A stretch of DNA of 63,232 bases, the filler included, from Rhabdomonas costata (Eukaryota), in the NCBI GenBank assembly GCA_019059605.1. It is 51 parts of 51 records of this genome, joined end to end, with 100 filler letters (N's around TTAATTAATTAA, not from the genome) between each part and the next. Parts side by side here need not be neighbours in the genome. Positions count along the whole stretch, not along the records: positions 1,244 to 2,386 come from JAHMHO010026507.1; 50 more parts are not named here. The stretch is one strand, 5' to 3'. Position numbers and translations under genes: made by a program. Numbering within the stretch: the first letter of the stretch is position 1; each line of letters begins with the position of its first letter. Shown piece after piece: positions 1,244-39,149 of the stretch. The notes beneath the pieces were generated by a model. The model had not been told where the DNA came from, ran no database searches, and was given only the letters and a program-made list of their open reading frames with translations.

Positions 1244-1401
1244 GGGGTTTGGGTTACCTTGTGGGTACCGGTGGTCAGCACTCCACTCCATCCGTCTTCG
1301 TCTTCTTCTTCTTCTTCTATGGTATGGTTTCTAGGGTAGAGTGTAGCGTAGGGTATAGTAGTGGTTGTGGTTGTGGAGTGGAGTCCACTGTAGGGTGGAG
1401 T

Positions 1402-1515
1402 GAAGACGAACACACGCGCGAGGAACCCAAGGTCCACGAAGGCCAACATCACGACTTCCCAACATCCCACCGCTTCCGCGAACACCTGTAACCCCACCCA
1501 TACGAACTGAACCCC
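1402..1515 (-). pseudogene. Hydrophobic mitochondrial-type fragment, possibly nad5 N-terminus
   Basis: FVWVGLQVFAEAVGCWEVVMLAFVDLGFLARVFVF has the same G+T strand skew as cob and loosely resembles nad5 (FYEV...W.D.G.F). Weak. Confidence 0.25.
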
Positions 1516-1529
1516 GACACGCCGAACCC

Positions 1530-1990
1530 GGACATAGCCCTGAGGAAACACCACTAAGTACACCCGACCCACGCAACGCACCACCAGCACCAGGAGTAAC
1601 CGTAAACCCAAGGACCACCAAACAAGCACACAATCAAAACCGCCATGGCCGCAATACCCAAAGCCTTGTGAGGAATCGCCCGAATGACACTGTAGAAATA
1701 CCACTCAGGAACAATCAACGCAGGAGTGACAATAGGGTTAGCAGGCACATAGAAGTCAAAATGTCCGAAGCGATCTGGGTCCCAGAATGCACACATACCC
1801 AGAATCAACGCAGGAATACACACGATAGCAGCATCACGAGCTCGCTCGGCTGAAAGACAATAACAACTCGCAAGAACAAACCCCGTGGCCAATTGCACAC
1901 CCACCCACATACCTGCACAGAACCCCAATGACTAGCCTGAAGACAACAACGCCGACGTACTCTATGCCCTCTTCGAAACGACTTGCAACA
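1530..1990 (-). pseudogene. cob: Mitochondrial-type cytochrome b, internally deleted, with in-frame TAGs
   Basis: Helix A region (SLGFCAGMWVGVQLATGFVLA..Y) is fused to RD..helix E, then GHFDFYVPANPIVTPALIVPEWYF and YSVIRAIPHKALG, then AWVGC. PANP..TP..I.PEWYF is diagnostic of cytochrome b. Confidence 0.92.
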
Positions 1991-1999
1991 AGGCGGAAG

Positions 2000-2385
2000 A
2001 ACCCAGCACACAACGGTGACAGGAAACCGAGACCGACACCGACACCCACCGCAGAACCCCAGCGCCCAAAGGAATCCGACACCACGCATGTATATTCCCA
2101 GCACCACAAACGCAGAAGCCGAAACCCGAACCCATGAACCCCAACAATAAGGAAACTGCAAATCCACACCAGCACCAACGAAACACGAACGGACACAGAA
2201 GAACCAACAACCGTAGCGAAGGAAACCACCAAGAGCAAAACGAAAGCGTGATACCGAAGAACCACCGCTTGACACCTCCACAAGAACCACGATTCCACAC
2301 CAACCTCAGAACCTCAAAACCCCGAATGCCAGAACCCAGACACAAGACACAGAACCCGAAACCTACAAGCAAGACCCAAACCCCC
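2000..2385 (-). pseudogene. nad4: Mitochondrial-type NADH dehydrogenase subunit 4 fragments, frameshifted and internally deleted
   Basis: Motifs occur in nad4 order across two frames: VEVSSGGS (~VEAPTAGS, 2281), LGGFLRY (~LGxYGFLRF, ~2227), VDL (~IDLK, 2167), SFLIVGVHGF / VSASAFVVLGIYMR (~SILLMLSHGLVSSALFLCVGVLYDR, ~2157-2084), GLGF/PVT (~NMSLPGT, ~2031). Aligned by eye. Confidence 0.6.
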
Positions 2386-2908
2386 CNNNNNNNNNNNNNN
2401 NNNNNNNNNNNNNNNNNNNNNNNNNNNNNNTTAATTAATTAANNNNNNNNNNNNNNNNNNNNNNNNNNNNNNNNNNNNNNNNNNNNTGTTGTTGGGATAC
2501 GACGCAGAGATCCCGCTTCCTTGAAAACAGAAGCGGGATCTCTGCGTCGTATCCAAACTTTCACGGGCTGCACTCCACATCTTTTCCCTCTTGTTTTCAT
2601 CACAAAGAACGCACGCGTGCGAATGACTCAGTGTGTTCCTTCGTGCGTATGTGTGCGTAGAGCGTATTGCACGGTTACTCCTGCTGCTGTATTCGTTCGT
2701 TCCATCTGTACTAATATCGATTCTTGACCCAAGAAGTCGGGGATCACTCCCTGTGCTGCTCGGCCTTAGGGGCACAATTCCGCACGGGACTGCCTCGAAT
2801 GTGCTCTCACCGAAACCTGTTGCTGCTTCTCTCTTTCTCTTATCTCTCTCTTTACTACGTATTTACTCCCTCTTTCTCTGCCCCCTCCCCCTCCCCATCT
2901 AGTATTAC

Positions 2909-3024: not shown

Positions 3025-5708
3025 CTAAGAGAGACCCGGGAATGTCTGTGTGTGTGTGTGTGTGTGCACGAATCGCACTCATCAAGAGACACAACCCAAT
3101 ATTCAACCACACCAGCCCAGGTTTACGGGGTTTACCGGCTATCAGCTGTACACCCACCCACCTTGCATAACTGTGCATCTCCAGTTTTCAGCGTGCACAG
3201 CTAAATTATCGAAGTTGCCAAAATAGTTTGGAAACCCTGGCAGAATCTTCCGTGCATTTCGGCAAAACGATCTGGACAGCTGGGGCAATTCAGGAATTCC
3301 TGCCTGCTGAATTTCAAGCAATAGAAGGCTATAGGAATACAGCAGGCAACACCGTAAACATATGTAAACATATGTTTCTGTAATTGCGCACGTCCGTGCC
3401 TTTTTTTGTAACATCGCTGTGCTTCCTGACCCGCGGACACCAGAACTTCACCGTATCCCGAATGGGTGTGTGCAAACTTTTTTAAACAAACATTTTAAAC
3501 AGGGAATTGCGGCTTCTTGCATTTGGCCCCGCTTTTCGGATTTTAGGGCCTTGCTGCACGGCACCCTACGGCGCTGGATCTGGCGGGGCATCCTGGGGCG
3601 AAAGTAGCGAATTTAGGACCCAAAACCCCNNNNNNNNNNNNNNNNNNNNNNNNNNNNNNNNNNNNNNNNNNNNTTAATTAATTAANNNNNNNNNNNNNNN
3701 NNNNNNNNNNNNNNNNNNNNNNNNNNNNNGTTTGTGGGTGCCGCGTTTCATGGGCAAGCCTCTTCAGAGTGACCGAAACCAAAACAGTAAAACGTGTCCT
3801 CTCCAGACCCCCTTGGCTCGACGTGAGACGGAGGTATGGAGAGGACACGTTTTACTGTTTTGGTTTCGGTCACTCTGAAGAGGCTTGCCCATGAAACGCG
3901 GCACTCACAAAAAGTAATCAGCAATGGGAGGGGGGGGGGGATCGGGGCGCTGGGCTCCCTGTCACTTTGGACCGACGGTGCAGATTGACGGTCCGAAACT
4001 GGTTTGAAACCCAGGTGGTAATAAGCCCAGATGGAAGTAAAACCAGATGGTAAGATTGGCTCTATCTTCTCGTGTATTTCTTACTCTGGAAGGAACCGTG
4101 TACCGTGTTGCACAGCTTGCCAACGGGCGTGCTTGAATACTTTATGGGCCGGGAAGGGGGGGGGGTTCAGGAGTTGATGCTCTCCTTCCTGAAGGCAACC
4201 GGTGCTCACTCTGTTGATTCCCGTATCACGGACGCTGTTGTGAATAAGACATCGGGGTGTGCTCTCCCGAACCCTAGCAACTGATGGGCGTGGGTAGATG
4301 AGGGGGCAGGTGTATTGCTTTCATGAGATCCACGCACTCCTATGCTGTATCCATTCTCGGTGCTTCTGCGGCATCCCTTTCGCTCGTTTTGTTCTTTTAT
4401 GAAGAGCAGGTGCAATCAGGTATCCACCAGAATTATCATCGTTCATTGCAATGTTTTTTCACCACGAAGCACTCTTGCGGCTTGCAGGTTTTTTGTTCCT
4501 TCTGCGGCATGAGCGCATCATCCTAACGGATGGTTATGTTCATGTACCATGTGAGACGTTCGCTGTTGACACGCAATACAGCCAGAGCCTTTCCACATCA
4601 CCTCGGTGACAAGTGGTCATTCTCCACATCACATCGGTGATTTCTTGCAGGCGGCCGCTTTTTGTAGCGGAGATCAGTCGGCTGCTTCGCAGCTCTCTTG
4701 ACAGCGAAGACCCAGTGGTGGCTCTGGAGGGCGGCTGTCTAGTATGTTAAAGATGTTCGAAAACTTCACCCCACATCACACCTTCATTCTCCTGCCGTAC
4801 ACCACCGCACTGCACTGGCTCCATTCCACTCAGTTCTATTCGGCTTTGCTCCCTTGTGATGCTCCTCTCTGNNNNNNNNNNNNNNNNNNNNNNNNNNNNN
4901 NNNNNNNNNNNNNNNTTAATTAATTAANNNNNNNNNNNNNNNNNNNNNNNNNNNNNNNNNNNNNNNNNNNNGTTTTGGTGGAAGATGGGAGTTTTCCCTA
5001 CGCCGAAGCCATGCGTTGCGCCGCTGGGACTGGGTGAGTGTGGGGGTTGCCACGGGGACCTGCCACAATACTCTCCGAAGTCTCGGCGAGCTGCTTCTGG
5101 CGACTCTCAATGACGTTTGCTGAAGGGAAAAGTGTGTGTATGTGTGTGTGTGTGTGTTCGTGCACACACGTGCGTCCACATCACCTCAAATGTGAACGAG
5201 CATGATTCCGGCGAAAGATGTCCAGTGAAAACAGCGAACCCCTTGTTATTTTTGGTCCGTTTGTGTGGTTGCTTGCACGGCAGAAACCGGATTCATTCTA
5301 CATCTGTCTCACTTTGTCGCGAGTTGTCTTTTCGCAGCAACCCTGAAGGTGGACGGGGAGGAGGGATGAGCCCATATTACAAAGGTGAACCCCACAATGG
5401 AAATTACATATGGGCCGCGCCAACCCAACGTCTCCTGTTTGTACAGGCACGTGCAGCGAGCTTCAGGTATTCCGTCCCCCCCCCTTTTGCCCGTACCCCG
5501 TCCGTGATTGCATAACGCGTGGGTTGGGGAAGCTGAATCCGAGGTAATCAATAGGTGTACTTGAGTTGCTATCACCACACACACACACACACACACACAC
5601 CATATACACAGACAGTGACACAGTGACACAGTGACCCTCACTCACGGTCGGCACAGGCTTTTTCAGCCTTGGCGACAAACTCTACTACAACCCCACCCGC
5701 CCACACAG

Positions 5709-7968: not shown

Positions 7969-9382
7969 GTAGGGAACATGAAGTTGGGGTTTAGACCTCC
8001 CAAACGGGGTCTCGGAACACCCAGTGGCCCAGACGCGGACTATCAGGGAGGAACAAGAGCGGTAACATTTTCAGTCATACAGATTATGAGAGACAGGTTT
8101 CCCTTTCTTACGCGGCTTTCACATCACCCAAGAGAAAACAAAACCCCAGTAAAAAGGCCTAAATTAAAAGTTAGAGGTCCGGCGACTCGTGCCTCGACTC
8201 GAGCTCGCGAATCGTGCAAACTATTGCAGCCGCAGTGTTTTAATCCATCTTCTAGTAAAGCAAGTAAGAGCCCAAAAGTTAGAGAATATAGCGTAACGGA
8301 TTCCGGTATGAAGTTTTTTCACAGTGACGTTCAAAACCTGGCCCTTTTCGGCGTTGGATACTTTGTTTTTACTTTTAAACCGTAATTTTCTGCTCTGCGG
8401 TGTTTTCGGTGTCATTTGGACTGAGTGTGTTCGCGGGTCTCGATTGGCAGAATTTGTGAAAACCTCAACCCTTGGTTCCGTGAGGCGACCTTTTTAGCAT
8501 CGTTCCCAGCTTACACCTACATCTCACCGGTTACCCCCCTAATGTTCAGAGACGGTTCTGATGCAGCGAGACGTCGTGCGCAGTTTCCCATACAACAACC
8601 CNNNNNNNNNNNNNNNNNNNNNNNNNNNNNNNNNNNNNNNNNNNNTTAATTAATTAANNNNNNNNNNNNNNNNNNNNNNNNNNNNNNNNNNNNNNNNNNN
8701 NTGTTGGGGGTCTCCCTGCCTTTCTCCTCAGAGAGCGATCGCCTGCAAGAGGAGAAAGGCAGGGAGACTCCTAATACGTGAAGCGTACCCTGTTGTATAG
8801 CATGATGAAGGGAAAGGGCTGGCGATGGGGGAGGAGGGAGGCAGGAATTGACCATCCCCTTTTTCCTCTCCACCGCGTCCACCGCGTGGAATCTGCCTCA
8901 CTAGTTACATGCTGAGCGGGTGCTGGAGGATGAGGGCGGGTGGTAAGACTGTTGAGCACAACTTTAGAGGAAATCCCCCTGAGTAATGTTCTGCTATTTC
9001 GCTAGTTCACAAACTTTTGAAAGCGAAGCAAGGCGGTTGACAGACGCACCATATTCAACATTCCCGTCTAAAATGTGCGCAACCACCCAGACCAGTTAAC
9101 AGAGCCTGACGCAGATGCTGTGAATTTGGGCTCTTTTGGGGCCTTTTCGGAAATTTCCCGGGACATTTGCGTCTTGGCGAGGAAGCCACTGGTCATCTCG
9201 TGATGACGTTTAAGTGCCGAAGCGTTGCCGAAAATTGCGGGAGCTAACTTTGGTCTCTGTTGGCACACATTTTCAGTCCACTTCTGAGGTAAAAGAATAT
9301 TTTTCTTTTTGCGAAATACAACATATCCGACTCTGGCGGCGTGCGCCCGTAGAAGCAGCGGATGAAGAAGCGAGAGAAAAAC

Positions 9383-13205: not shown

Positions 13206-14912
13206 CTGCGTTGTCGTTGGGTCCTAGGAGGGACGCGTGATTGTACCACAAATGAAAAGTGATTTAGACTCGGAACGCTCAGTTAAGGGTGTGCACGCCC
13301 AATCATACAAAACTGTCATCGCTTTCCATCAACGCGAAAAGCTCTGTCAAAAGAAAAAATGGTGAAGCGTACCTTCCCCTTCCCAGATGCAGAGAACTGC
13401 TTCTTACAAGTTAATATTTTAGCTACAATTTACAGTGCAATCATTTTTTCGATTTGGTACTCTGACGAAGCATCGCTGTTACTCTGCCTTTTCTGGGGTG
13501 AAGCAAAGACAACTGAGGAAAAGGAAACCTGCCCCACAATTTCCTCAGTTGTCTTTGCTTCACCCCCCACNNNNNNNNNNNNNNNNNNNNNNNNNNNNNN
13601 NNNNNNNNNNNNNNTTAATTAATTAANNNNNNNNNNNNNNNNNNNNNNNNNNNNNNNNNNNNNNNNNNNNGGGGTGTGGTTGCCGTTTGTTCCGCTTTTT
13701 CTTTCCATTTCTTGGTGTCTGCACTCGTGTTTCTGATAGTCTGGATCGGCGTAATGTGACGCCTTTTTCCTTTGAGGTAGCCGGGTACCAACCCGCTAGG
13801 CCCCTGGACAAACTTCCACGCCAATAAAGCTCGTATGAGAATGAATGCCCTTTGCCTTCAGCCATAGTATCCAGACTATCAGAAACACGAGTGCAGACAC
13901 CAAGAAATGGAAAGAAAAAGCGGAACAAACAGCAACCACATCAGCAGAGCCTCGAAGACTTGAGCAATGGTACAGAGCAGCACACAGGAAACATCAGCGC
14001 AAGTGCTGGTTAAAAAAGTTTTTGGATTGAGACTTCTCACTACTTTGACGCCATTGAGAACGTCGGATTGCACGACTCGGAGATGCGGGTGGTGCTTCAG
14101 CAAGGCGGGAAGAGCTGTGAGGCACCTGTAATGAGGCACTTTAAAAAGCTCCCGCCTTGAGGCGGTGGAAGTGACTAGGTTTCAGTAAGGAAGTCTGGAT
14201 GGAGAAAGGGGTGATTTTGTATTTTGTATAGTTCTTATGTGTGGACCGGGGACTTTAATGCTGTCATGAAGAAGTACCCTGGTTTTTCTTGCCTTCGCGC
14301 GCGCTCGCGTGTGTGGAACTCGAAAACAATCGCACACTTCAGAAAGACAGCCAAACTGCGGCAGTTATTCAGTGCGCCAATGCGTTCAAAAAATACCTAT
14401 GGGCAGGAGAGAATGGGTATGCAAACACCCCATGGCCCCTCAATCTAGTCTCACTCCATCTTCTTCGCCAGGTATGCCATGGGCCCTGCATGATCATGGT
14501 AGTCTTTCCAAAGTTTCCGAATGCCTATTGGTACCCGCTTTCTGATAACTTGATGAAATTCTTTTGTACGGGAAGGCCCCTGATACATTGACGACCAAGG
14601 TATAATGAGGCTAAAACCGAAGTGTTCTACCCGGTTTGCCATTACCGACGGCACTCGCGCCTCACACAATACTCTCCAGCTCTTGAAGGTTCGGCTTCCA
14701 CCCAGGAAGAATTTTAAAAGTCATACCAGCGAGATGCCAGAAGTACCACTGGAACAACTGGTGTCCAACGGATTTCTGGAGTCGGACTCCATGGGAACCC
14801 CACGGAGGAGCCNNNNNNNNNNNNNNNNNNNNNNNNNNNNNNNNNNNNNNNNNNNNTTAATTAATTAANNNNNNNNNNNNNNNNNNNNNNNNNNNNNNNN
14901 NNNNNNNNNNNN

Positions 14913-26835: not shown

Positions 26836-29800
26836 GTTTTTGTGGGGATCTTTTAATTCGAAATACCCCTGCCTCGGTTCGTGCAGTTATTCAAACCCAC
26901 CGGATCATTCTCGACCCTCCATGGCGACTCCAAATTGTCGGCCACTCTACGTCTCTCGCTGTTGTTTTTGCTCTTTCCCCGTCTTGCATACTCGCCTGTC
27001 ACCTGTCCGTCGCGACCCAGTGCACCAGCGGCAACAGAAACAGACAACTGTAAGCGCCCAAGATGTCACTGGCCCAACACCTAAGGGTGTAAGAATGCCG
27101 GAGGGAGGTATTTCCCCAGCTGTCCAGCAACCACCGGCAAAGCTGCATTCCTTCGCGTACGTCTCGCTGTGGCTTGCCCCCCAGCAGACCGTTGGGCCGA
27201 ACGCGTAACGTTCGTTGTTTGCCCCCACAACCCCNNNNNNNNNNNNNNNNNNNNNNNNNNNNNNNNNNNNNNNNNNNNTTAATTAATTAANNNNNNNNNN
27301 NNNNNNNNNNNNNNNNNNNNNNNNNNNNNNNNNNGTTTTTGGTGTTTCATCACTTTCCGCTGAACATGGTCAAGGGCTTGGACCCCTATCTTCAGCGGAA
27401 AGTGATGAAACACCCAAAGCCAAGACCCTCGACAAAGCAGTGGAACGCGTGTGGGAAGCTTTCCGCACCACGCAGAGGGGCTTACCTTGCTCAAGACAGG
27501 TCCAAAGTCGTGGCATCAGGCAACCGATGTCACATGAGCCGTTTGCTGCTGAGCCATGAGTCTGCCGCCGTATTTTTTTCAGGAAGACATGGAAAGGCTT
27601 ATTTTCTTGCCAATGTGTATGTTTTCATCATTTTTAGTTCAATTGCGTTTTGCCGCTGCAACTTTCATCAATGCTGCTTCGAAAGCAATGCTGAGTGCGA
27701 AGAACGGCCCCGGCTTCTGAGTGCGGACACATGAACGCTGCATTTATGCACTGACACTTTTTCAACGACTGTGGTTTTTGTGTTCAGCATGAAAATTATT
27801 TTGCGGTATGTCTAAATGATGCCAGGCAGTCACAGAAAGGTGTCGAATAAAAAGAAGTCCAGAATTTTCGCAAAGGAACAAAGAGTGAGATGTTTCTCGG
27901 TAAGTTAAATCCTGGGGAAAGGGGAGATCAGGCTGATATGTCACTTTGACGGCACGGTTTTACGGAACGATGTAAATAATGATAAAGTGACCCGGGAAAA
28001 GCAGGTGCACTTTTTTCATTTAAGTGTGACTTCTAGTTGTTAGTTTCGGTGACTTCCATTTACTGAGGCTTCTTCGGTCAAGCTTTGGGCAGTTTGCGTG
28101 TTTCTTTGTTTCGCAGCAGAGAATGACGCTGAAAAGTCGCCATCACTGGTATCCTAATTGGGGGAAATAAACCAGGTTTCCTTCGGAAACTTTCGTTTCT
28201 AGGCCCACCCGGGAGAACACTAGAAGCACACAAACTTTTTTGGCACTTGCACAACCCTAAACACGTCAAGAATCGGGAAGGGTGGAGCTTCAGTTCCAGA
28301 AACGTCGAACAACTGCAGAGTGTGAGAAGGGGTGGTAGTGTGCAAGTAGGTTTGCGGATCGCAATAGAACCACAGCAGCTGGAAGTTGGTGTGCGTGTCA
28401 CGCCTGCAAAGCACGTCCTGCCCTCCCCTCTTTCCTCCCTTGCCCCGTATCTGTCAAGCTTCCTCCCCAACACANNNNNNNNNNNNNNNNNNNNNNNNNN
28501 NNNNNNNNNNNNNNNNNNTTAATTAATTAANNNNNNNNNNNNNNNNNNNNNNNNNNNNNNNNNNNNNNNNNNNNCAGCGTGCTATTCGCCCAACACATGC
28601 ACAGAGAGAGACTGTCTCGCCTCGTACCTTTAAACTGACGTAGCTCGAGGAAGAGCTCTAATGTTGTTTGTGAGATGGCTATGATGGCAGCCAGGGCAGC
28701 TGCTGAGTGGACTCAGCGTCAACCAGGTCCACTATGTATACAAGTCCGCACCAGTACCGCTGTGACCCCGTATTCTTTTGGAGCGGGTCTTCTGCAGGTG
28801 GGATGGTCTCTCATAATGTGCGAATCATCCGCTGGAGTCACAGGAGAATCATGCACCGTCTTTTAACATCATGAAAAATGTGGGGAACGTTGCCTCGAAC
28901 TTTGATTAGCGAAGTATTCGAAGTTTCTTGACTTCATATTATGACCTAACCCAGGAAGTAAGAGGAGGAGCTCTCTACTGGAGTTGCATTGGCCGACGAC
29001 TTGAGCCTTGCTGGTTGCACTCGCGAGAAAATTCATGCGTCCCCTTCCCTTTTCTCAAAAACACAAGAATATATGTTGGGAGAGGGGGTAGCTCGCTACG
29101 CTGGGCATGGCCTGTCCTCCCATTTGGGGTCGAGGAACACAAGCAAAAAACGCCTTGAAGCTTTGGTTGGTGGCAGAATAGACCTTTTTCGAACCCCACA
29201 ACAGGTCCCAACCTTTTTCCTTCCTCGGGTGCTGAATAACATGTTTTTCCTCTTTTTGCAGTTTTCAAGGTCACTTGCGCAAGCCTGCACCCACACTCTC
29301 GACTTAAAAGGGAGTGCATATCACGGAGCCCCACCTGCTGGAGAGCTACAATGCCTGGGTGGTGCGGGAGCTGGCCCGCCGCCGAAAGGAGAGTGGGGCC
29401 TCAACCGCCGCTGCCGCCGCTGGGACAGTGCAAGCTTGACACACCAGCCCACTCCCGTTGTCGGGGTGTTCGGAAGACCCTTTTTTCACTTGTGACGATA
29501 GGCCCAGCAAGAGCAGCCCCCCCCCAGAGGAGGTCAATCCCAACTGTAAAGAAAGAAGAGGCATATGTTGCACTCTGTCATTGAGTTCCGTGGTCAGTTA
29601 CCTCGTGTGTGTGTTTCGTCCTTGGAGGTGTGCTTGAAGGTGAATGCCAAGATGCGGTTGCTCAGATGGTTCCTTACTCACGTACAATCCCAGCACGCCC
29701 CGCAAGTGGCTTCTCCNNNNNNNNNNNNNNNNNNNNNNNNNNNNNNNNNNNNNNNNNNNNTTAATTAATTAANNNNNNNNNNNNNNNNNNNNNNNNNNNN

Positions 29801-36477: not shown

Positions 36478-36980
36478 GTATACCTTGTGCCGTTGTCTTT
36501 TCCCAATTCCGCTCTTAAGATAACTTTGAAGGTCTTCTGTATCGCTGTGTTGCGTTTGATTCTCTCACTTGGGACAGAGATGCCTTCCCCACCACCCCCT
36601 CTGGCCAGGATCCCTCATTTCGGCAGTTTTTAACGCTGCACCGGTGGGTCTGATTATCCAGCCTGCCATTCCTTGAGGGTAGCTGTGTGCAATTGGTGGC
36701 ATTGGTGGTCATCCAAGCAAGGGTAATGCCAAAAGGTGTGCTGTGGCCCGGTGCACATGTCCTCGTGAGTCGGGATTTTCGCACATTGCGGCCTGGCCAT
36801 ATCCCGTTCCTGAGAGTCTAAATTTGCACCCGCTGGCCATTTCCTCGGCGGTGGCATTTTCAATTCAGCGTCACTCATTGTAACGCACAGGGGTTGAGGG
36901 AGGGTGGAGAAAATGGCGAGGTATTTGTGACTCAGGCGCATATGGTGTGAGGCGTGTCTTATTGAAGAGCTGGACGGCGT

Positions 36981-37015
36981 GTACCGTGCCGTACCGTGCC
37001 GTGCCGTACCGTACC
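36981..37015. repeat. (GTRCC)n pentamer repeat
   Basis: gtacc/gtgcc x7. Confidence 0.85.
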
Positions 37016-39149
37016 ATGGTACCTACGCGCCAACACTGACCCCAGAACTCGAGCGAGAGTTGTGGTTCTCCCCTCGACTATTGCGCAAAACATTTTTGTT
37101 ACTCCGTTCTAGTTTATGGAAGTGACTGGCCTGGGGTGCAAGGACCTCGCCATTTTCTCCACCCCCCCNNNNNNNNNNNNNNNNNNNNNNNNNNNNNNNN
37201 NNNNNNNNNNNNTTAATTAATTAANNNNNNNNNNNNNNNNNNNNNNNNNNNNNNNNNNNNNNNNNNNNGTTGTTGGGTACGTCGGTTTGGGGTTGTGATT
37301 CTTGGAAGCTCATAAAGAGGTAAAAGAAATCCAAGAGGGAATTTACATGTAAAGCATTGGAAAACTCTTAGAAAAAGTAAAAGCATTGATGGAGATTGAT
37401 TCTAAAGCCTGAAGGTTAAATTTGAAAAACACAGCAGAAGATTTTCCGACAAATTTCAGCGGTAGACATGTATTTTTTATAATATACATCCAATCAGTGG
37501 AAAAACCCAATACTGCACAAAAACGTGGTCAACGATGGGATGAGGGGATGAAAAGCGCAATATTACGCAAGGGGGACTCAAACAAAGGCACGATTGTGAG
37601 TAAAAGAAACAGCATGTCAAAGGAACTGTGTCGTGTCAAACGTTGTGGTTTGGCCCACAAGATGGAAGAAGGAAGAATAAGCGAGATATTGGGCCAGAAA
37701 ATCGTCTTGGAGTGGAGGAAAATGGTATTTTGGCCAAGGGGCAGAACAGAAAAGAGTATTCTGTGGGATAAAAAGGGTGAATGGGAAAGATGTGAGAAGA
37801 ATCGGTAGTATATAGGGGGGAACTAGTGGAAGGCACGGGTTTGATCCAAAAGGGTTTTTTGTTGGGGCAAAAGCAATTGAGCAGTGTGCCCATGGAAATG
37901 CCTAATGGCGAAACGGACACTTACCGGATCTTGAGACTGGGTCGGTGTTATGAGCGGCCATTCCACGAGGCGCAAAACCGAAAGCATTCCGGCCAGAGCC
38001 GGTGTAAGCACGAAGCTTTCCGACCGATCCTGCTTAGCATACCTAGGGGTAGATACCAGGAGCACTTAGAATCAGCAGAAAGGCCGGAGTAGGGCCGAAG
38101 ACGGTTCCTGCAAGCCTGTGTAAAATCAGGTAAGGGAAATACAATCACCACAAAAATGGCCCTTAAATCCGCTGCGGCGGCTCTAAACCCAAGGCATTCT
38201 GGCCCACGCCGGTGCCAGCATGAAATGCTCTTGGAATCTACCCTTAAGTATGCTAAGTTGGCCCGGCCGAAAGCTTTAGGCTGGGCAGGCACGCTGCCAA
38301 CGACGGCCCCGGCAAGTCAGGGTAAACGCATGGAATGGACTAAATGAATGGGGCTGAATGATGCTATTATCACGTGTTGCAACCAAACAACCACGTACAA
38401 ACACAACACCNNNNNNNNNNNNNNNNNNNNNNNNNNNNNNNNNNNNNNNNNNNNTTAATTAATTAANNNNNNNNNNNNNNNNNNNNNNNNNNNNNNNNNN
38501 NNNNNNNNNNGGGGTTCAAGCTGACTCCCGAAACGGGCAGAAACGGAAATGGTCAGAATTCCTTTCTTGCATGCTGATCCCAGGACCCTACACAAGGCTA
38601 TAGAGAAGCAGTATCTCTTCAGCCAGGAGGTTATCCCTGCTGAACGTCTTTCCTTGCTCTTTGACACCCTGTGCGCTTTTCTCAGCGACGGGAGACCAGT
38701 GGTGGAGGGACATGTGCGATCGGTACCTGAATTCTGGCGTCATCTTGGTGAGGTTCTCCTTTTATGACTTTCCTCTCCCTGGCAACGGCTGTTCCCACTC
38801 ACTCGATTCACCCGTGTTCTCGGCCCTGCCTTCGGGTGCGCAAGGGTGCGAGCATGTAACGAATGAATGAAAGCAAAGGGAAAGAGAAGTTGGCACTGCG
38901 AGTGCAGAAGTGTGGGTTAGGGCGCCTTTCAAACCTTGGATGAAATACCCCAATGAGGTTCCAAACAATGTTTGCTCAAAAGAAGGAAAAAAGAAGGCCA
39001 ATGGTCTGATTAGAACCACGTTTGAAGCAAAACTACCAAACAACAGTAGGTGTTTCGAACAGTGCTGACGCCTGTGCGTCGTCCTTGGAGCCATGCGTCT
39101 GGCCGTATGGATGAGTGCTTAGCCTTCACGGGGGAGGGGGTGCCCTCAG

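Follow-up and report, generated by a model that had tools for sequence, protein, structure and literature searches.

A decayed cytochrome b copy without its middle part in strongly G+T-skewed DNA of Rhabdomonas costata

The mitochondrial DNA (mtDNA) of Euglena gracilis is described as a population of heterogeneous short linear molecules that carry full-length genes together with numerous short gene fragments and pseudogenes, probably without function, a state ascribed to ongoing recombination (PMC8130358; PMC4700960, which is Dobakova et al. 2015, describing the work of Spencer & Gray 2011). Here we report on a partial copy of the cytochrome b gene (cob) from another euglenid, Rhabdomonas costata, carried by one contig of a 63-kb window. 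The window is the whole stretch of DNA that was analyzed, and it consists of 51 contigs of 1138-1144 bp chained by N/TTAATTAATTAA/N linkers. An initial annotation had read the contig as a compact nad4-cob-nad5 cluster. Our account is mainly a correction of that reading: instead of such a cluster, we find one decayed, internally deleted cob copy in gene-less, skewed DNA.

For R. costata itself, a complete cob has been reconstructed, with no editing or introns reported (Soukal et al. 2021, PMC8219788), and Table S7 of that paper gives 15 contigs with similarity to cob at coverages of 0.37x-63x, two of which were merged into the complete gene. Like the relic described here, the published mitochondrial contigs read TGA as Trp and TAG as Tyr, stem from an assembly of whole-genome-amplified DNA and include many that resemble cob. 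The parts of the paper that deal with the reconstruction of cob do not discuss deleted or decayed copies. Two further kinds of sequence invite comparison. Nuclear copies of mitochondrial DNA (NUMTs) are, like the relic, decayed and truncated copies of organellar genes without function, but the relic's contig has no nuclear flank and its substitutions follow an organellar strand bias. The gene modules of diplonemids are likewise euglenozoan mitochondrial genes in pieces; unlike them, the relic fuses two non-adjacent blocks in one frame and shows no cassettes, and the corresponding genes of its relatives are contiguous.

When tested as a working cytochrome b, as ND4 or ND5 and as a diplonemid-type module, the relic failed in each case. 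It fits a known kind, the dead gene fragment of the E. gracilis type: it comes from a euglenid and from one gene of the same small set, and it is a partial, damaged respiratory gene in non-coding DNA of organellar type. E. gracilis mtDNA is AT-rich; the relic, by contrast, lies in DNA whose G+C is about one half and whose strands differ strongly in G+T, and it uses TAG for Tyr. It is also an internally deleted copy, unlike the simple end fragments with which it is compared, and its residence in the mitochondrion is what we infer rather than observe. The E. gracilis fragments have been ascribed to a genome that is made up of short molecules and prone to recombination, and we propose the same origin for the relic.

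Anatomy, genetic code and decay of the cob copy

The minus-strand frame 1931-1554 matches Pfam PF00032 (Cytochrom_B_C) with an E-value of 3.2e-12 (47 bits against a cut-off of 20.7) over profile positions 1-50 of 102. In PDB it matches 45 distinct sequences, all of them chains of cytochrome b or of b6f subunit IV. The top match, 8iuf_QC (E 8.7e-17), aligns over two separate stretches (chain residues 21-52 and 226-292) and is the cytochrome b of E. gracilis; the code 8IUF appears in a paper on the respiratory chain of that species (PMC10884005). A search of 5.8 billion proteins with the same frame returned five matches, among them P0001 and P0002 with 75% and 82% identity, respectively, over the matched part. 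The presence of cob, which the initial annotation had called, is confirmed by the Pfam and PDB matches alike.

Relatives of the copy were drawn from a scan of metagenome contigs with cob alignment, comprising 80 loci. L006 and L007 are nearest, followed by L003-L005, L001 and L002. The cob genes of L006, L007, L001 and L003 are contiguous, with full Pfam cytochrome b matches. When P0001 was aligned to the contig by tblastn, residues 9-52 fell on 1970-1839 and residues 219-306 on 1838-1581, in the same frame and with zero bases between them. The first block shares 61% identity with P0001 residues 9-52 (E 9e-12) and 76-78% nucleotide identity with L006 and L007; its stretch QVVSKRAYST.. corresponds to L006. 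The second block is 83% identical to L006 and L007 in amino acids over 78 residues and 81% identical in nucleotides. An in-frame ERA|RD junction at 1839/1838, skipping roughly 165 codons with both haem-binding helices, had been noted before, and the tblastn alignment places it exactly there; between the same break points the relatives have 166 codons (L001, L003) or 172 (L006, L007). PF00033, which models the four helices of the N-terminal domain, haem-ligating helices B and D among them, has no match in the relic, from which residues 53-218 are absent by alignment, as against E-values of 5e-48 in L007 and 5e-51 in L001. We conclude that the relic is a decayed cob copy with its middle removed.

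Judged on the sequences of the relatives, microhomology at the junction amounts to at most 1-2 nucleotides (nt) and the two sides share no k-mer. The junction is compatible with illegitimate recombination or with template switching, and a de Bruijn or k-mer mis-join is unlikely because the microhomology is so short. The 13-mer AATCAACGCAGGA does occur twice, as the initial annotation had it, but both copies encode the cob peptide PALI, and the repeat is therefore a coding coincidence and marks no junction. That pieces of a gene lie in the correct order with blocks missing likewise holds for cob; the same claim for nad4 has no support, as no gene was detected there.

The solidly aligned part of the relic contains two TAG codons, both at Tyr positions and both upstream of the open reading frame (ORF) obtained under code table 4. 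With TGA as Trp and TAG as Tyr, the cob frame extends to about 1997-2018. All 17 in-frame TAG codons in the cob genes of the relatives (six in L002, two in L003, three in L006 and six in L007) fall on Tyr positions of P0006; TAG is absent from cob in L001 and L008. At residue 33 of P0006, a Tyr, L002 has a TAA codon, against TAG in the window and in L003. A code with TGA as Trp and TAG as Tyr has been published for R. costata mitochondrial contigs (PMC8219788), and the TAG codons of the relic agree with it. Since the 17 TAG codons of the relatives all stand at Tyr positions, the TAG=Tyr mitochondrial code is common to several uncultured lineages.

Decay was assessed on 116 codons aligned across six sequences (the window, L006, L007, L003, L001 and L002). 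At positions where the other five agree, the window has 12 private amino acid states, compared with two in L006, one in L007, none in L003, two in L001 and ten in L002. The motifs HPDNY and PEWYFLPFY are intact in all five relatives, and neither is intact in the relic; around FLP the relatives read TAC TTC CTT CCG TTC TAT and the window TAT TTC TAC (PEWY---FY). The window and L006 differ at 42 third positions and L006 and L007 at 44, yet despite this equal distance the window differs from L006 by 19 amino acids and L006 from L007 by only five (Fisher p 0.004). Window-specific nucleotide changes fall on codon positions 1 and 2 in 16 of 21 cases, as against 6 of 23 in L006 and L007 together (p 0.002). 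They also have a direction: with 34% of sites being A or C, A/C>G/T changes outnumber G/T>A/C changes by 9 to 4 under strict scoring (binomial p 0.009) and by 11 to 5 under relaxed scoring (p 0.004). On these sequence comparisons the copy is judged to be non-functional. Because of the excess at positions 1 and 2 and the directional changes, we conclude that constraint was lifted while strand-asymmetric pressure towards G and T continued. That substitutions still push the sense strand towards G/T favours the organelle over the nucleus as the site of decay.

Table 1. Features of the contig, in order of position in the window
Feature	Position	Strand	Remark
Whole contig holding the cob relic	1244..2386	.	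1143 bp, between N/TTAATTAATTAA linkers
G/T-only contig start, 12 nt	1244..1255	+	Read as remnant of a degenerate whole-genome-amplification primer
Left arm with a (CTT)n run; plus is its G+T-rich strand, contrary to the remainder; no gene detected	1256..1386	+	G+T 0.664
Downstream stretch, no detectable gene, codon-like periodicity (earlier nad5? call)	1401..1613	-	No match
cob block 2: helices E-F region and PEWY loop, P0001 residues 219-~295	1614..1838	-	PF00032; tblastn E 1e-37
9-nt loss (FLP of PEWYFLPFY)	1694..1695	-	Between TTC direct repeats in relatives
13-mer AATCAACGCAGGA, copy 1	1713..1725	+	Minus strand CCT GCG TTG ATT = TPALIV
HFDFY replacing HPDNY (CCN>TTT, AAY>TTC)	1749..1763	-	HPDNY invariant in five relatives
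13-mer AATCAACGCAGGA, copy 2	1803..1815	+	IPALIL on minus strand
In-frame deletion junction GAG CGA GCT / CGT GAT GCT (ERA|RD)	1838..1839	-	166-172 codons absent
cob block 1: N-terminal region and helix A, P0001 residues ~1-52	1839..1997	-	Solid from residue 9 = 1970
TAG codon at Tyr position (..G-Y-SLGF)	1932..1934	-	Tyr in 5/5 relatives; L002 also TAG
TAG codon at Tyr position (RS-Y-STT)	1962..1964	-	Tyr in 4/5 relatives; L003 also TAG, L002 TAA
Upstream flank, A-poor and G+T-rich, no detectable gene (earlier nad4 call)	1998..2373	-	No match in three frames
G/T-only start of minus strand, 13 nt	2374..2386	-	Same 11-mer as other end (GGGGTTTGGGT), 100% complementary

Skewed flanks and the earlier nad4 and nad5 calls

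The G+T skew and the roughly half G+C described earlier were both borne out. G+T reaches 0.713 on the minus strand over 1387-2373, and the base shares of the contig on the plus strand are A.34, C.33, G.20 and T.13. Among the 51 contigs this is the only one whose overall G+T departs from 0.5 by more than 0.08. The flanks of the cob relic are more skewed than cob itself (A 2-9%). Composition switches between 1387 and 1386, and the left ~140 nt are skewed on the other strand, to a degree matched by 2.7% of equal-sized windows in the other 50 contigs. The left arm being skewed too, there is no unskewed sequence within the 1143 bp. We found no similarity between this contig and the other 50, no Pfam match on the plus strand of the left arm and no RNA gene in the contig by Rfam and tRNA scans.

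Cob is the only gene detectable in the contig. Hidden Markov model searches of the frames, which included PF00361 (Proton_antipo_M) as the model for ND4 and ND5, recovered cob through PF00032 and no nad4 or nad5 family at E<=10. In the region called nad4 (2385-~1998), the three minus-strand frames had no relevant Pfam family or PDB chain at E<=10. Frames b and a had zero matches in a word-index search for longer proteins among 5.8 billion, and frame c had none at E<=0.001 in an exhaustive phmmer search of 1.84 billion. The resemblance of frames b and c to ND4 motifs, seen by eye, was dropped, having no support from the database searches. Three-base periodicity is absent from the upstream 376 nt (2373-1998; chi2 2.6, p 0.86), as it is from the flank of L007, which has no gene (p 0.68). 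In cob itself it is evident, with p 0.001-0.007 for 390-nt pieces of the gene of a relative. The putative nad5 piece fared no better, with no Pfam or relevant PDB match at E<=10 in three minus-strand frames (1553-1402; frames of 1600-1244). Short, decayed pieces score low, as cob block 1 illustrates with just 14 bits against the Euglena chain when searched alone, and we therefore regard nad4 and nad5 as unsupported rather than excluded; very short and very decayed pieces could escape these tests. The membrane-protein impression that the flanks give likely stems from their composition, since DNA of ~75-80% G+T translates into strings rich in Gly, Val, Leu, Phe, Trp and Cys in every frame.

Downstream, 1559-1400 does show periodicity (p 0.0006), with T, G/C and G at the successive positions of the cob frame, and has no detectable homologue. 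When shifted by one base from that frame, it consists of GNT-type codons that encode a Gly/Ser/Val-rich string resembling a low-complexity insert in the C-terminal cob of L006 and L007. It is possible, though unproven, that this stretch is a frameshifted remnant of the variable G/S/V-rich C-terminal region of cob. In Smith-Waterman comparisons of three frames with the C-termini of P0001-P0005, L001, L003, L006 and L007, no cob-frame score beyond ~1614 rose above composition-matched shuffles. The best off-frame scores (z 2.6-2.9; equalled or exceeded by 7 of 300, 9 of 500 and 42 of 2000 shuffles) were judged compositional, and another was reached by 331 of 2000. DNA alignment of the stretch to the C-terminus of cob was unconvincing, blastn with word size 7 against the 80 loci found nothing beyond 1604-1987, and alignment of the 5' flank to the relatives gave no convincing DNA homology past the start of cob. 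A weak tblastn match of the flank to L008 (E 0.008) was dismissed, as it lies outside the nad1 frame of that contig.

The closest relative with a long contig has the same arrangement. L007 is G+T-rich across 3.4 kb (0.59-0.81 per 200 nt) with cob as its sole recognizable gene, and the ~1.9 kb downstream of its intact cob (L007 1500-3447) hold the same G+T of 0.59-0.81 without codon periodicity or a recognizable gene. This is a long gene-less, skewed spacer, and a nad4-cob-nad5 cluster is thus found neither in the window's contig nor in L007.

Origin of the deleted copy

We give about an even chance to the reading that the contig is a non-functional cob relic in euglenid mitochondrial-type DNA, as in E. 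gracilis. Illegitimate recombination or replication slippage in a recombination-prone mitochondrial genome would have produced a deleted copy in which the N-terminal 52 codons of cob were fused in frame to codons 219-~295. Set in a gene-less, strongly G+T-skewed spacer, this copy would then have evolved free of selection, pushed towards G and T by the strand-asymmetric mutation pressure of the organelle. The skew and the direction of the substitutions lend indirect support to mitochondrial residence, which, like the origin of the large deletion inside the cell, we infer. The reading is further supported by L007, with cob alone and 1.9 kb of gene-less skewed DNA, and has precedents in the gene fragments of E. 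gracilis and in the 15 cob-like contigs of Table S7 of PMC8219788.

Several points weigh against it. A recent or long NUMT that included mitochondrial spacer would look identical within 1.1 kb. Primer remnants bound the contig at both ends, and it is therefore probably one amplicon, so that the 1839|1838 junction and the strand flip near 1387 are probably known from a single amplicon alone; this concern, raised already in the initial annotation, is a live one. The references being relatives rather than a cob from the same species, the private changes comprise changes in the functional gene of R. costata as well as changes in the relic, and the lineage-specific changes are few (13-21). Finally, both scorable deletions keep the frame, for which the chance under random decay is about 1 in 9.

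A rather unlikely alternative is that cob and its spacer, rearranged beforehand or eroded by deletions later, now reside in the nucleus as a NUMT. The copy is clearly non-functional, and its left arm has a (CTT)n microsatellite and a different strand composition. Contigs resembling cob at very low coverage are listed in Table S7 of PMC8219788, and the cob genes of L003-L005 stand among repeat-rich DNA, with one database ORF continuing from cob into that flank. A NUMT would not be expected to sustain a one-strand effect such as the continued push of the sense strand towards G/T, however, and no unskewed, nuclear-like sequence occurs in the 1143 bp, although the contig may sit wholly inside an insert. 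The lack of similarity to the other 50 contigs also speaks against a nuclear location.

It is unlikely, too, that the 166-172-codon gap, the flip near 1387 or both arose in the tube, as a chimera made by template switching during amplification or by assembly; the base-level decay would still be biological. G/T-only runs of at least 8 nt open 30 of the 51 contigs, C/A-only runs of at least 8 nt close 37, and 21 carry runs at both ends, compared with a background in which G/T-only runs start at 1.3% of internal positions. These ends are probably untrimmed remnants of degenerate amplification primers, which we take to be G/T-only. Inverted repeats or palindromes of at least 24 nt occur in eight of the 51 contigs and reach a contig end in seven. 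Strand-displacing extension that yields branched structures is described for this type of kit, as are primers with "self-inert degenerate 3' ends" (PMC4081514). G/T-only primers would be able to start from either end of a strongly skewed template only if its skew reverses, so a reversal, be it natural or artefactual, is what such priming would select. Set against this, the 12 private amino acid changes and the directional bias go beyond amplification and indicate that the template was already decayed. Inverted repeats in the contig reach 16 nt at most, with none of 24 nt or more, and the left arm is therefore not a fold-back of neighbouring sequence. The short microhomology at the junction, as noted above, makes a de Bruijn mis-join unlikely.

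We consider a functional compact or modular organellar arrangement, whose nad4-cob-nad5 pieces would, as in diplonemids, be joined or completed in the RNA, very improbable: the blocks are collinear, the junction is in frame and one frame is open across the whole contig under TGA as Trp and TAG as Tyr (expected by chance at ~9% A), but no test gave a nad4 or nad5 signal, the upstream stretch has no codon periodicity, invariant motifs are damaged, cob is contiguous and intact in the same-code relatives L006 and L007, and a complete R. costata cob that shows neither editing nor introns is on record (PMC8219788). The initial annotation had proposed either an undescribed GC-rich organellar genome with recombined or modular gene pieces or an eroded NUMT. 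Mitochondrial-type DNA is retained from that proposal, with recombination and nuclear transfer both possible, and the modular pieces are given up. To call the genome undescribed was an overstatement, as mitochondrial contigs of the lineage and their TAG=Tyr code were published in 2021 (PMC8219788).

If the relic in the R. costata contig is mitochondrial, as we favour, it would add a second euglenid lineage besides E. gracilis with mtDNA littered with dead fragments, at a very different composition and with a very different code, and would bear on how euglenozoan mitochondrial genomes became fragmented. In that case this colourless lineage may keep, as E. gracilis does, a recombining pool of short molecules with deleted gene relics under G+T pressure, a proposal we advance tentatively and rate at slightly below even. 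Were it true, a scrambled, fragment-rich architecture would predate the split between Euglena and Rhabdomonas and would depend neither on base composition nor on the TAG=Tyr change.

Contig ends and relatives' contigs

The 11-mer shared by the two ends of the contig is a primer feature, because near-copies of GGGGTTTGGGT are found at three other contig ends and none in L001-L008; its interpretation as a biological terminal inverted repeat was rejected on the same grounds. A hairpin at 1271-1413 was also rejected, as its short inverted repeats cross one another and form no single stem. The palindromes and inverted repeats that touch contig ends span 24-181 nt and lie at 2491-2558, 3731-3911, 8704-8774, 13495-13566, 13675-13940, 27337-27418 and 36898-37168. 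These features, present in seven contigs (~14%), are fold-back artefacts of strand-displacing amplification. With single-amplicon contigs, primer-derived ends and fairly frequent fold-backs, internal junctions in this assembly need read-level or PCR support, and primer-remnant ends should be masked ahead of analyses of contig ends.

L003-L005 are three whole-genome shotgun records with a full-length cob that contains two TAG codons for Tyr, in repeat-rich DNA of ~0.62-0.63 G+C. G+T in their flanking DNA varies from 0.36 to 0.73 per 200 nt. The private substitutions of this cob are largely third-position T>C and T>G changes. P0007, a 544-residue database ORF, runs from about residue 88 of cob past the end of the gene and 270 residues into the flank of L003-L005. 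The setting may be a mitochondrial genome in which the flanks differ greatly, or else a copy in the nucleus. In the more distant, T-rich L008, nad1 (PF00146) lies immediately upstream of cob. There, nad1 is split across two overlapping frames (1027-1599 and 1355-2119, together L008 1027-2119), which reflects a frameshift or a sequencing error.

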